Shown piece by piece: positions 14,782-20,700 of a stretch of DNA of 64,000 nt; position 1 is the stretch's first letter, and the number at the start of each line of letters is the position of its first letter. Position numbers: made by a program. The DNA lies in NCBI RefSeq assembly GCF_013167455.1, contig NZ_CP038328.1; one strand, written 5' to 3'. This stretch comes from Escherichia coli O157:H7. GTDB lineage: Bacteria > Pseudomonadota > Gammaproteobacteria > Enterobacterales > Enterobacteriaceae.

Positions 14782-17700
14782 AACAGTGCCGACTGCCTGA
14801 TGCGACGCTCGCGCGTCTTATCAGGCTTCCCTCTCATCTGTATAAATTTCGAACTACACTTAACTGGCTTCTCTTAACTGAGGTCACCATCATGCCGTTA
14901 AGTCCCTACCTCTCTTTTGCCGGTAACTGCTCCGACGCGATTGCCTATTATCAACGTACGTTGGGCGCTGAACTGCTCTATAAAATCAGCTTCGGCGAAA
15001 TGCCAAAATCAGCGCAGGACAGCGCCGAGAACTGCCCTTCCGGAATGCAATTTCCCGATACCGCCATCGCCCACGCCAATGTGCGCATTGCCGGAAGCGA
15101 TATCATGATGAGCGATGCTATACCGTCAGGAAAAGCCAGCTACTCCGGTTTTACGCTGGTGCTCGATTCGCAACAGGTCGAAGAAGGAAAACGCTGGTTT
15201 GATAACCTTGCCGCTAACGGAAAAATCGAAATGGCCTGGCAGGAAACTTTCTGGGCGCATGGCTTTGGCAAAGTCACCGATAAATTTGGCGTACCGTGGA
15301 TGATTAATGTCGTCAAACAACAACCAACGCAATAATCCGCCGGGAGGCCCGCCCTCCCGCACTGTCATCGAATTCCCGTTAACTCTTCATCTGTTAGTCA
15401 CTTTTAATTAACCAAATCGTCACAATAATCCGCCACGATGGAGCCACTTTTTTAGGGAGGCTGCATCATGCAAACGATTATCTGCGTCGAACAACTGAGC
15501 AAAACCTTCAACCAGCATCAGGCGCTGCACGCGGTTGATCTGAATATCCATCATGGTGAAATGGTGGCTCTGCTTGGGCCGTCCGGTTCCGGCAAATCCA
15601 CCCTTTTACGTCACTTAAGCGGTTTGATTACCGGCGATAAATCCGCCGGTAGCCATATCGAGCTGCTGGGCCGCACTGTCCAGCGCGAAGGCCGCCTGGC
15701 CCGCGATATCCGCAAAAGCCGCGCCAACACCGGCTACATCTTCCAACAATTCAACCTGGTGAATCGCCTGAGCGTACTGGAGAACGTGCTGATTGGCGCG
15801 CTCGGCAGCACGCCGTTCTGGCGCACCTGTTTTAGTTGGTTCACCCGCGAGCAGAAACAGCGCGCATTACAGGCGCTGACCCGCGTCGGTATGGCGCACT
15901 TTGCGTATCAGCGTGTTTCCACGCTCTCCGGCGGCCAGCAGCAGCGTGTGGCGATTGCCCGCGCGCTGATGCAGCAGGCGAAAGTGATTCTCGCTGACGA
16001 ACCGATCGCCTCGCTGGACCCGGAATCGGCGCGCATCGTGATGGACACCCTGCGCGACATCAACCAGAACGACGGCATCACCGTGGTCGTCACGCTGCAT
16101 CAGGTGGATTACGCCCTGCGCTACTGCGAACGCATCGTCGCCCTGCGCCAGGGGCACGTCTTCTACGACGGCAGCAGCCAACAGTTTGATAACGAACGTT
16201 TTGACCATCTCTACCGCAGCATCAACCGCGTCGAAGAGAACGCGAAAGCTGCCTGACATCCCCATCATTGAGGAAAACGAATGAACGCTAAGATAATTGC
16301 CTCGCTGGCCTTCACCAGCATGTTCAGCCTCAGCACCCTGTTAAGCCCGGCACACGCCGAAGAGCAGGAAAAGGCGCTGAATTTCGGCATTATTTCAACG
16401 GAATCACAGCAAAACCTGAAACCGCAATGGACGCCGTTTTTACAGGATATGGAGAAGAAGCTGGGCGTGAAGGTCAACGCCTTCTTTGCCCCGGACTATG
16501 CGGGCATTATCCAGGGAATGCGTTTCAACAAAGTGGATATCGCCTGGTACGGCAACCTGTCGGCGATGGAAGCAGTGGATCGCGCCAACGGCCAAGTCTT
16601 CGCTCAGACCGTCGCGGCGGATGGATCGCCGGGTTACTGGAGCGTGTTGATCGTCAACAAAGACAGCCCGATCAACAACCTGAACGATCTGCTGGCGAAG
16701 CGGAAAGATCTCACCTTCGGTAATGGCGATCCTAACTCCACCTCTGGCTTCCTCGTCCCCGGCTACTACGTCTTCTCCAAAAACAATATCTCCGCCAGTG
16801 ACTTCAAGCGCACCGTCAACGCCGGGCATGAAACCAACGCGCTGGCCGTCGCCAACAAGCAGGTGGATGTGGCGACCAACAACACCGAAAACCTCGACAA
16901 GCTGAAAACCTCCGCGCCGGAGAAGCTGAAAGAACTGAAAGTGATCTGGAAGTCACCGCTGATCCCAGGCGATCCGATCGTCTGGCGTAAAAACCTTTCC
17001 GAAACCACCAAAGACAAGATCTACGACTTCTTTATGAATTACGGCAAGACGCCGGAAGAGAAAGCGGTGCTGGAACGCCTGGGCTGGGCGCCGTTCCGCG
17101 CCTCCAGCGACCTGCAACTGGTGCCGATTCGCCAGCTCGCACTGTTTAAAGAGATGCAAAGCGTGAAAGGCAATAAAGGGCTGAATGAGCAGGACAAGCT
17201 GGCAAAAACCACCGAGATTCAAGCGCAGCTGGATGACCTGGACCGCCTGAACAACGCGTTAAGCGCGATGAGTTCGGTAAGTAAAGCGATGCAGTAAATC
17301 GTAGGTCGGATAAGACGCCCCGGTGTCGCATCCGACAATGTGCAGGCGTTGATGCCGGATGCGGTGCAAGCACCTTATCCGGCCTACAGACCGGAGCCAA
17401 ACATGCAAACCATCACCATCGCCCCACCCAAGCGCAGCTGGTTCTCGCTTCTGAGCTGGGCCGTTGTACTCGCCGTGTTGGTCGTCTCGTGGCAGGGCGC
17501 GGAAATGGCCCCGCTCACGCTGATCAAAGACGGCGGCAACATGGCGACCTTCGCCGCCGACTTCTTCCCGCCCGATTTCAGCCAGTGGCAGGATTACCTC
17601 ACCGAAATGCTCGTCACGCTGCAAATCGCCGTCTGGGGCACCGCGCTGGCGGTGGTTCTCTCCATCCCCTTCGGCCTGATGAGCGCCGAAAACCTGGTGC

Positions 17701-20700
17701 CGTGGTGGGTTTACCAGCCCGTGCGCCGCCTGATGGACGCCTGCCGCGCCATTAACGAAATGGTCTTCGCCATGCTGTTCGTGGTCGCCGTCGGCCTCGG
17801 CCCATTCGCTGGTGTGCTGGCGCTGTTTATCCACACCACCGGTGTGCTCTCCAAACTGCTTTCCGAAGCGGTGGAAGCGATTGAACCCGGCCCGGTGGAA
17901 GGCATTCGCGCCACCGGCGCCAACAAGCTCGAAGAGATCCTCTACGGCGTGCTGCCGCAGGTGATGCCGCTGCTGATCTCCTACTCCCTCTATCGCTTCG
18001 AATCCAACGTCCGCTCGGCGACCGTCGTCGGCATGGTCGGCGCGGGCGGGATCGGCGTCACGCTGTGGGAAGCGATTCGCGGTTTCCAGTTCCAGCAAAC
18101 CTGCGCCCTGATGGTGCTGATTATCGTCACGGTCAGCCTGCTGGATTTCCTCTCTCAACGGTTGCGTAAGCACTTTATCTGATTAGCGAGGCATTGATAG
18201 CTATGCACTTGTCTACACATCCGACCAGCTACCCAACACGCTATCAGGAGATAGCCGCAAAACTTGAGCAGGAGCTTCGTCAACACTACCGCTGCGGCGA
18301 CTATCTTCCCGCCGAGCAGCAGCTGGCGGCGCGCTTTGAGGTAAATCGCCACACCCTGCGCCGCGCCATCGACCAACTGGTGGAAAAAGGCTGGGTACAG
18401 CGCCGTCAGGGCGTCGGCGTGCTGGTGCTGATGCGCCCGTTCGATTACCCGCTCAACGCCCAGGCGCGTTTTAGCCAGAATCTGCTGGATCAGGGCAGCC
18501 ATCCCACCAGCGAAAAACTGCTGTCTGTGCTGCGCCCGGCCTCCGGTCACGTCGCTGACGCGCTGGGGATAACCGAGGGGGAGAACGTCATCCATCTGCG
18601 CACCCTGCGCCGGGTCAACGGCATCGCGCTCTGTTTAATCGACCACTACTTCGCGGACCTCACCCTCTGGCCGACGCTGCAACGCTTCGACAGCGGCTCG
18701 CTGCACGATTTTCTGCGCGAGCAAACGGGGATTGCACTGCGCCGCAGCCAGACGCGGATCAGCGCCCGCCGCGCCCAGGCCAAAGAGTGCCAGCGTCTTG
18801 AAATTCCGAATATGTCCCCGCTGCTGTGCGTGCGCACCCTTAACCACCGTGACGGTGAAAGCAGCCCGGCGGAGTACTCCGTCAGCCTGACGCGCGCCGA
18901 CATGATTGAATTCACTATGGAGCACTGAATGCACGCAGATACCGCGACCCGCCAGCACTGGATGTCCGTACTGGCACACAGCCAACCGGCAGAACTGGCA
19001 GCCCGCCTGAACGCGCTGAACATCACCGCCAACTATGAGGTGATCCGCGCCGCTGAAACTGGCCTGGTACAGATTCAGGCGCGGATGGGCGGCACCGGCG
19101 AACGCTTTTTTGCCGGCGACGCCACGCTGACCCGCGCCGCCGTACGTCTGACTGACGGCACCCTCGGCTACAGCTGGGTGCTGGGGCGCGACAAACAGCA
19201 CGCCGAACGCTGCGCGCTGATTGACGCGCTGATGCAGCAAACCCGCCATTTTCAAAACTTATCAGAAACGCTTATTGCCCCGCTGGACGCTGACCGTATG
19301 GCACGCATTGCCGCACGCCAGGCCGAAGTGAACGCCAGCCGGGTCGACTTCTTTACGATGGTTCGCGGAGACAACGCATGACCCTGGAAACCGCTTTTAT
19401 GCTTCCCGTGCAGGATGCCCAGCACAGTTTTCGTCGCCTGTTAAAGGCCATGAGCGAGCCGGGCGTGATTGTCGCCCTGCATCAGCTCAAACGCGGCTGG
19501 CAGCCGCTGAATATCGCCACCACCAGCGTGCTGCTGACGCTGGCCGATAACGACACGCCGGTGTGGCTTGCCGCGCCATTGAGCAACGATATCGTCAGCC
19601 AGAGCCTGCGTTTTCATACCAACGCGCCGCTGGTCAGCCAGCCGGAACAGGCGACCTTCGCGGTAACGGATGAGGCGATTTCCAGCGAACAGCTTAACGC
19701 CCTTTCCACCGGCACCGCCGTTGCGCCGGAAGCGGGCGCAACGCTGATTTTACAGGTCGCCAGCCTGAGCGGCGGGCGCATGCTGCGTCTCACCGGCGCG
19801 GGTATTGCCGAAGAACGAATGATCGCCCCGCAGCTGCCGAAGTGCATTCTGCACGAACTCACCGAGCGCCCGCACCCGTTCCCGCTCGGCATCGACCTGA
19901 TCCTGACCTGCGGCGAGCGCCTGCTGGCTGTTCCGCGAACCACTCATGTGGAGGTGTGCTGATGTACGTTGCCGTGAAAGGGGGCGAGAAGGCGATCGAC
20001 GCCGCCCACGCCCTGCAAGAGAGCCGACGCCGGGGCGATACCGATTTGCCTGAACTGAGCGTCGCCCAGATTGAACAGCAGCTTAATCTTGCGGTGGATC
20101 GCGTGATGACCGAAGGCGGCATTGCCGACCGCGAGCTGGCGGCGCTGGCGCTGAAACAGGCCAGCGGCGATAACGTCGAAGCAATTTTCCTGCTGCGCGC
20201 CTACCGCACCACGCTGGCGAAGCTCGCGGTAAGCGAGCCGCTCGACACCACGGAGATGCGTCTCGAACGGCGTATTTCAGCGGTTTATAAAGATATTCCC
20301 GGCGGCCAGCTGCTTGGCCCAACCTACGACTACACCCATCGCCTGCTCGATTTCACCCTGCTGGCAAACGGCGAAGCGCCGACGCTGACCACCGCCGACA
20401 GCGAACAGCAGCCGTCGCCGCACGTTTTCAGCCTGCTGGCGCGTCAGGGGCTGGCGAAGTTTGAAGAGGATAGCGGCGCACAGCCGGATGACATCACCCG
20501 CACGCCACCGGTTTACCCCTGCTCACGTTCTTCCCGCCTGCAACAGCTCATGCGCGGCGACGAAGGCTATTTGCTGGCGCTGGCCTACTCCACCCAACGC
20601 GGTTACGGGCGCAATCACCCGTTCGCGGGTGAAATCCGCAGTGGTTACATCGACGTGTCGATTGTGCCCGAAGAGCTGGGATTTGCGGTGAACGTCGGCG

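Follow-up and report, generated by a model that had tools for sequence, protein, structure and literature searches.

The octamer tract and reading frame of phnE

The 64,000-nucleotide stretch of Escherichia coli O157:H7 analysed here (contig NZ_CP038328.1 of assembly GCF_013167455.1, hereafter the window) contains phnE, the gene for the permease subunit of a phosphonate ATP-binding cassette (ABC) transporter, which in the strain K-12 is frameshifted by an extra 8 base pairs (bp). The origin of the window is clear, as three annotated stretches of the O157:H7 strain PV15-279 tile it together with 99.94-99.98% identity; it is O157:H7 DNA. A sequence-only reading had described phnE as uninterrupted at 17403-18182, and our analysis bears this out. 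The features at the gene are the following:

17403..18182, + strand: phnE, phosphonate ABC transporter permease subunit, a single unbroken frame of 259 codons
17808..17823, + strand: tandem octamer tract of two copies, GCTGGTGT at 17808-17815 and GCTGGCGC at 17816-17823; site of the 8-bp insertion in K-12
17610..17612, + strand: codon 70, CTC for Leu (GCC for Ala in the K-12 revertant and in the common E. coli PhnE), the sole amino acid difference from both

From the ATG at 17403 to the TGA at 18180-18182, the gene spans 780 nucleotides (nt) with 259 codons and no internal stop. A mechanical open reading frame (ORF) call extends the frame upstream to GTG 17340, which would give a protein of 280 amino acids (aa), and the start of 'phnE1' in MG1655 corresponds to window position 17352. 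Both starts were dropped in favour of ATG 17403, because this codon follows a GGAG at a distance of 8 nt, is also used as the start in the RefSeq annotation of identical O157:H7 DNA and lies in front of a match to the NCBIfam family TIGR01097 that begins at residue 16. PhnE belongs to this family: the equivalog profile is matched with 312.6 bits (curated cut-off 216.7) and nearly over its full length, residues 16-258 aligning to profile positions 8-251 of 252. Its neighbours fit this assignment, as phnC (ATPase) and phnD (binding protein) precede it at the start of the carbon-phosphorus (C-P) lyase operon. The EAA coupling loop segment of the binding-protein-dependent transport inner-membrane domain is present, and PF00528 is precomputed for P0005, a cluster representative that is 99% identical to the window protein. 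A sequence search against solved structures returned only distant MetI-type permease matches. At the nucleotide level, many E. coli O157:H7 chromosomes match the 843 nt around phnE at 100%, their records label the same span phnE, 'phosphonate ABC transporter, permease protein PhnE', and the exact protein is found under the name PhnE on at least 1000 public contigs.

That phnE is cryptic in K-12 and reverts when one 8-bp repeat is lost has been textbook knowledge since 1991. Aligned with phnE of the K-12 strain J53 (97% nucleotide identity), the window gene differs by 19 substitutions and one gap of 8 bp, which lies at the repeat and places the K-12 lesion exactly at the site that had been named from the sequence. 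In K-12 (J53 and MG1655) the tract reads TTC GCTGGCGT GCTGGCGT GCTGGCGC TGTTT and thus has three copies, whereas the window reads TTC GCTGGTGT GCTGGCGC TGTTT with two copies. The repeat unit is GCTGGCGT, of which functional alleles carry two copies in tandem and K-12 three. Exact GCTGGCGT units in front of the last copy number two in K-12, one in typical functional alleles and none in the window, where a T at 17813 changes GGC synonymously to GGT and breaks the repeat in the first copy, and where the two copies differ from each other at 2 of 8 positions. The sequence-only reading had relied on another string, GCTGGCGC, reported to occur once in phnE at 17815-17822. The count is right, with the coordinates corrected to 17816-17823; as a discriminator, however, it has to be given up, since this last copy of the tract also occurs once in K-12 and once in the typical functional allele.

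The consequence of the third copy is evident from the K-12 sequence: the frame shifts after about codon 140 (the extra unit lies at codons 136-141) and stops after 189 residues, and phnE is flagged as 'frameshifted' in J53 and likewise in MG1655 (pseudogene b4583). This truncation costs the K-12 protein the EAA loop segment along with the last transmembrane helices at the C-terminus, both of which are kept in the window PhnE. In a K-12 revertant, phnE was reactivated by loss of GCTGGCGT at ORF positions 407-414 (Stasi et al., 2019, PMC6469041), which correspond to window positions 17809-17816. The cryptic class phnE(EcoK0) of K-12 (Makino et al., 1991; Iqbal et al., 2004; as cited in passages of PMC3463581 and PMC6469041) is defined by the third copy of GCTGGCGT together with the frameshift. 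The window shares with it the orthologous gene and the repeat site, but has two octamers and a frame that reads through, and it shows both characteristics of the functional class phn(EcoB)/phn(EcoK+), namely two octamers and an open frame of 259 codons. In comparison to the functional phnE of E. coli B/BL21 and of K-12 phn(EcoK+) revertants (WP_001193500.1 type), locus, length of 259 aa, number of octamers, operon order and promoter region are the same, and the differences consist of Leu70 instead of Ala and of GCTGGTGT instead of GCTGGCGT in the first copy, the latter being synonymous and interrupting the slippage tract.

Based on these comparisons, the window phnE is very probably the ordinary functional-type allele of the E. 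coli O157:H7 lineage. In the mechanism that we propose, PhnE would act as the membrane permease of PhnCDE, an ABC importer that takes up phosphonates (and phosphate) and whose genes come first in the Pho-regulated C-P lyase operon phnCDEFGHIJKLMNOP. The third GCTGGCGT copy of K-12 shifts the frame and ends the protein before the EAA coupling loop, whereas the two copies of the window permit read-through to a PhnE of 259 aa that is one conservative residue (A70L) away from experimentally working alleles. The transporter is predicted to be active, and under phosphate limitation the strain would be expected to grow on alkylphosphonates and 2-aminoethylphosphonate with no need for a reversion event. 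An intact phnE in O157:H7 is the expected and already known state and represents a known polymorphism in its common form.

The remaining phn genes and the frameshift in phnO

Each of the 14 phn genes of K-12 was searched against the window by blastn and gave one full-length, collinear match, together covering 15468-26282 with 94.6-97.9% nucleotide identity. Across the operon only two insertions or deletions (indels) separate the window from K-12, one of 8 bp in phnE and one of 1 bp in phnO. The earlier statement that all 14 phn genes are present is correct for presence and order, and needs an amendment for phnO, which is frameshifted by an extra T at codon 7. The other 13 genes are intact and free of internal stops, with proteins 97-99.6% identical to K-12; phnO is the exception among the frames read from their canonical starts. 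Apart from phnE, the operon comprises:

15336..15467, + strand: yjdN-phnC intergenic region with the phn promoter, 132 nt upstream of phnC
15468..16256, + strand: phnC, phosphonate ABC transporter ATP-binding subunit, intact; 262 aa, 254/262 identical to K-12
16281..17297, + strand: phnD, periplasmic phosphonate-binding protein, intact; 338 aa, 334/338 identical to K-12, no indels
18203..18928, + strand: phnF, GntR-type regulator, intact; 241 aa, 240/241 identical to K-12
18929-19381, + strand: phnG, intact
19378-19962, + strand: phnH, intact
19962-21026, + strand: phnI, intact
21019-21864, + strand: phnJ, intact
21861-22619, + strand: phnK, intact
22730-23410, + strand: phnL, intact
23407-24543, + strand: phnM, intact
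24543..25100, + strand: phnN, ribose 1,5-bisphosphokinase, intact; 185 aa, 184/185 identical to K-12, TGA at 25098-25100
25087..25522, + strand: phnO, aminoalkylphosphonate N-acetyltransferase; 436 nt versus 435 in K-12, extra T in the run 25103-25105
25524..26282, + strand: phnP, phosphoribosyl cyclic phosphodiesterase, intact; 252 aa, 244/252 identical to K-12

The promoter region between yjdN and phnC is the same as in K-12 MG1655 over the aligned 144 nt, the first base excepted, and it includes ctgttagtcacttttaattaac, which we take to be the Pho box of K-12. The translation of phnC has no internal stop and shows recognisable Walker A, signature and Walker B motifs. The genes phnG to phnM (18929..24543, + strand), which encode the C-P lyase core and associated proteins, are collinear with K-12 without any indel, with protein identities of 97-99.6%. 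In soil or water, phnH, phnJ and phnO have been named as down-regulated genes (PMC2948877).

A variable site was found inside phnC, where both the window and K-12 have one copy of a 33-bp unit (11 aa; window 15938-15977) in the region between the ABC signature and Walker B. The same unit is present in three copies in O157:H7 PV15-279 (L002 8540-8640) and apparently in two copies in several O157:H7 strains from cattle hides. It represents an in-frame variable number tandem repeat that may inactivate PhnC in the expanded strains.

With respect to phnO, the frame from the canonical ATG shifts at codon 7 and ends after 29 codons at 25174-25176, with three stops in the canonical frame, and RefSeq marks the gene in O157:H7 as a 'frameshifted' pseudogene. 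The allele was found exactly, over a context of 66 nt, in 285 records, while all other records sampled (37 of 40 spread rows) match over 65 nt when the whole query aligns and over 63 nt when bases 3-66 do, and hence lack the extra T. The lesion accordingly looks lineage-specific. Besides the ATG, an alternative start is available at GTG 25097, which overlaps the stop codon of phnN (GTGA) and opens a frame of 141 codons.

How this frameshift is judged determines what is expected of the whole system. It is a real possibility, even if we do not favour it, that phnE is intact while the phn system is partly decayed, with phnO as a true pseudogene and PhnP possibly lowered by polarity. In such a strain, alkylphosphonates and 2-aminoethylphosphonate would still be used, and, on equally tentative terms, aminomethylphosphonate and (S)-1-aminoethylphosphonate would be neither used nor detoxified. 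The early stop in the ATG frame, the RefSeq label and the lineage-wide occurrence of the allele argue for such a decay, and so does the Shine-Dalgarno sequence AAGGAG at 25073-25078, whose spacing fits the ATG and not the GTG 18 nt away, so that a GTG-started PhnO would need coupling by termination and reinitiation. However, the GTGA overlap with the phnN stop is the classic arrangement for termination-reinitiation. Moreover, the 141-aa product covers positions 5-144 of 144 of the model NF007530 with 302 bits (cut-off 142), and downstream of the frameshift phnO has no further lesions and only a single substitution compared to K-12. On at least 1000 contigs, other annotations give this product as an intact aminoalkylphosphonate N-acetyltransferase. 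A PhnO of 141 aa could therefore be produced from GTG 25097.

The physiological meaning of either outcome can be read from phnO mutants, which still use methyl-, ethyl- and propylphosphonate as well as 2-aminoethyl- and 3-aminopropylphosphonate, but fail on aminomethylphosphonate and (S)-1-aminoethylphosphonate (Hove-Jensen et al., 2012, PMC3463581). In the same study, a polar phnO allele (a deletion) caused slow growth via reduced PhnP. Since phnO is dispensable for both substrates, growth of O157:H7 on methylphosphonate and 2-aminoethylphosphonate is predicted. The sequence-only reading had expected the use of phosphonates in general; for these two compounds, the ones that it had named for a test, this is reasonable, whereas the use of aminomethylphosphonate and (S)-1-aminoethylphosphonate depends on PhnO and is uncertain.

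Octamer copy number in E. coli and slippage at the tract

To place the window allele among natural alleles, short probes were compared with 5,426 complete E. coli genomes. The allele with three octamers (46-nt probe, coverage of at least 80%) was present in 1009 of them (~19%), the remainder being mostly intact, and the window allele (52-nt probe) reached a coverage of at least 80% in 2556 genomes and was exact in 308 records. This survey used megablast with a required exact word of 28 nt and matched ~3,560 of the 5,426 genomes, so that these frequencies are lower bounds. In a spread sample from a full-gene search, 6 of 30 rows had a span longer by 8 nt, which is consistent with ~19%. That most E. 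coli have a functional phnE has already been stated in published work.

The three-copy allele, annotated as 'frameshifted', occurs in isolates from dog, chicken, cattle and human (including the canine strain 1283, L006), and it is not a laboratory artefact. Four octamer copies were found in one wastewater isolate, E. coli SW07163 (L013). The three natural or laboratory alleles with three or four copies that we compared differ from MG1655 by 0-1 substitutions and therefore share a K-12-like background.

Reversion of phnE in K-12 has been attributed to slippage between direct repeats (PMC4759930). Like simple-sequence-repeat contingency genes, phnE in K-12-like backgrounds turns on or off as an 8-bp unit is lost or gained (PMC4759930), and alleles with two, three and four copies exist in nature; the window tract differs from this scheme in that it is interrupted and would be a poorer slippage substrate. 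The period-8 tract is 23 nt long in K-12, 15 nt in the typical functional allele and 13 nt, with an interruption, in the window, and the longest perfect period-8 self-match amounts to 15 nt in K-12, 7 nt in typical two-copy alleles and 5 nt in the window. With such an interrupted repeat and a self-match of 5 nt, the window tract is predicted to be a poorer template for the gain of a third copy. Slippage to the three-copy OFF state should, on this suggestive basis, be rarer in the O157 lineage than in other E. coli. Among the O157-type records, 308 of about 309 have the identical tract, and copy-number variants were not seen in them.

A more far-reaching interpretation, which we consider rather unlikely, is that the phn operon of O157:H7 has been remodelled twice, in that the C-to-T change at 17813 fixed phnE in the ON state and the 1-bp insertion in phnO moved the start to the GTG or inactivated the gene. 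If so, the phase variation of K-12-like strains would have been removed in O157:H7, and the handling of 1-aminoalkylphosphonates such as aminomethylphosphonate by this pathogen would have changed, whichever outcome applies to phnO. Aminomethylphosphonate is a breakdown product of glyphosate.

Apart from the octamer tract, phnE has a second slippage-prone site. The motif CCACCGG is found at 17836-17842 and again at 17911-17917, 75 bp apart, and among public E. coli PhnE proteins P0002 (284 aa) contains a duplication of 25 aa and P0049 (234 aa, on 126 contigs) the matching deletion of 25 aa, a segment bounded by this 7-nt microhomology. In another homologue, P0024 (261 aa), the shifted frame of the K-12 type follows the octamer for ~25 residues before the normal frame resumes, which points to a second indel that compensates for a three-copy tract upstream of it.

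Residue 70, the weight of the prediction and other parts of the window

When the 8 bp are removed in silico from phnE of MG1655, the resulting protein and the window PhnE are identical at 258/259 residues, with A70L as the only difference. Ala70 is present in all seven other E. coli alleles examined (O104:H4, ZH193, NC101, a chicken isolate, a canine isolate and two human isolates), which are all of different backgrounds and of which ZH193 and NC101 represent a separate, more divergent phnE sequence. By this comparison, Leu70 is peculiar to the O157 lineage. Among 23 aligned homologues, column 70 contains A, G, S, V, I or L; Leu70 also occurs in two enterobacterial orthologues (P0017 and P0037), Ile is usual in Pseudomonas-type PhnE, and every invariant column is retained in the window protein. 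Since the column is variable among orthologues and the invariant columns are kept, we consider A70L to be benign.

We regard as very improbable the alternative that the open frame codes for an inactive permease, with A70L (GCC to CTC, two adjacent base changes) disabling PhnE and leaving the operon phenotypically cryptic: the substitution is indeed fixed in the O157 lineage, missing from the seven other alleles and from P0005 and P0049, the other two full-length E. coli sequences in the alignment, the remaining E. coli row with Leu70 (P0002) appearing O157-type, but it exchanges one hydrophobic residue for another where a predicted membrane helix begins, at a position at which bona fide PhnE orthologues vary and naturally have Leu or Ile.

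Several points nevertheless weigh against a functional-type phnE within a working importer and operon. In the literature searched, neither growth nor phenotype-array results for O157:H7 on phosphonates turned up, nor any functional data for this phnE allele. Should translation not restart at the GTG of phnO, no PhnO would be made and translation would end ~350 nt before phnP, so that polarity could reduce PhnP. In addition, some O157:H7 genomes other than the window carry in-frame expansions of 33 or 66 bp in phnC, so that the transporter may be under relaxed selection in the lineage. Finally, the case for a tract that is 'locked ON' is weak, as it draws on repeat geometry and on a tract shared by 308 of 309 records of a young clonal lineage.

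Beyond correct annotation, a functional-type phnE in O157:H7 is of little importance. Metabolic reconstructions of O157:H7 should count the PhnCDE phosphonate/phosphate importer as present and flag phnO as uncertain. For genotyping of the phnE locus, the length of the tract (16 bp versus 24 bp) or the number of GCTGGCGT units should be used instead of the number of GCTGGCGC strings.

Over the whole window, GCTGGCGC occurs 25 times, compared to 6.7 occurrences expected from shuffled sequences. This excess was set aside as a likely effect of codon usage, given that the string can be read as CTG-GCG (Leu-Ala).

Downstream of the phn operon, the window also departs from K-12. Where rpiB and the als operon adjoin yjdP in K-12, O157:H7 has a sugar-utilisation island (window ~26350-37900) with genes for a hybrid sensor kinase/response regulator, an ABC transporter, a D-lyxose/D-mannose isomerase, a ketose-bisphosphate aldolase, a kinase and a response regulator. 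The ABC ATPase of this island is annotated with an internal stop in PV15-279, but the window has an uninterrupted frame of 507 codons for it (29132-30652). The register between the window and PV15-279 is first lost at ~28346-28372, where a short tandem repeat ATCATTGAA is present in ~2.5 copies, and this site probably reflects a copy-number difference between the two sequences.

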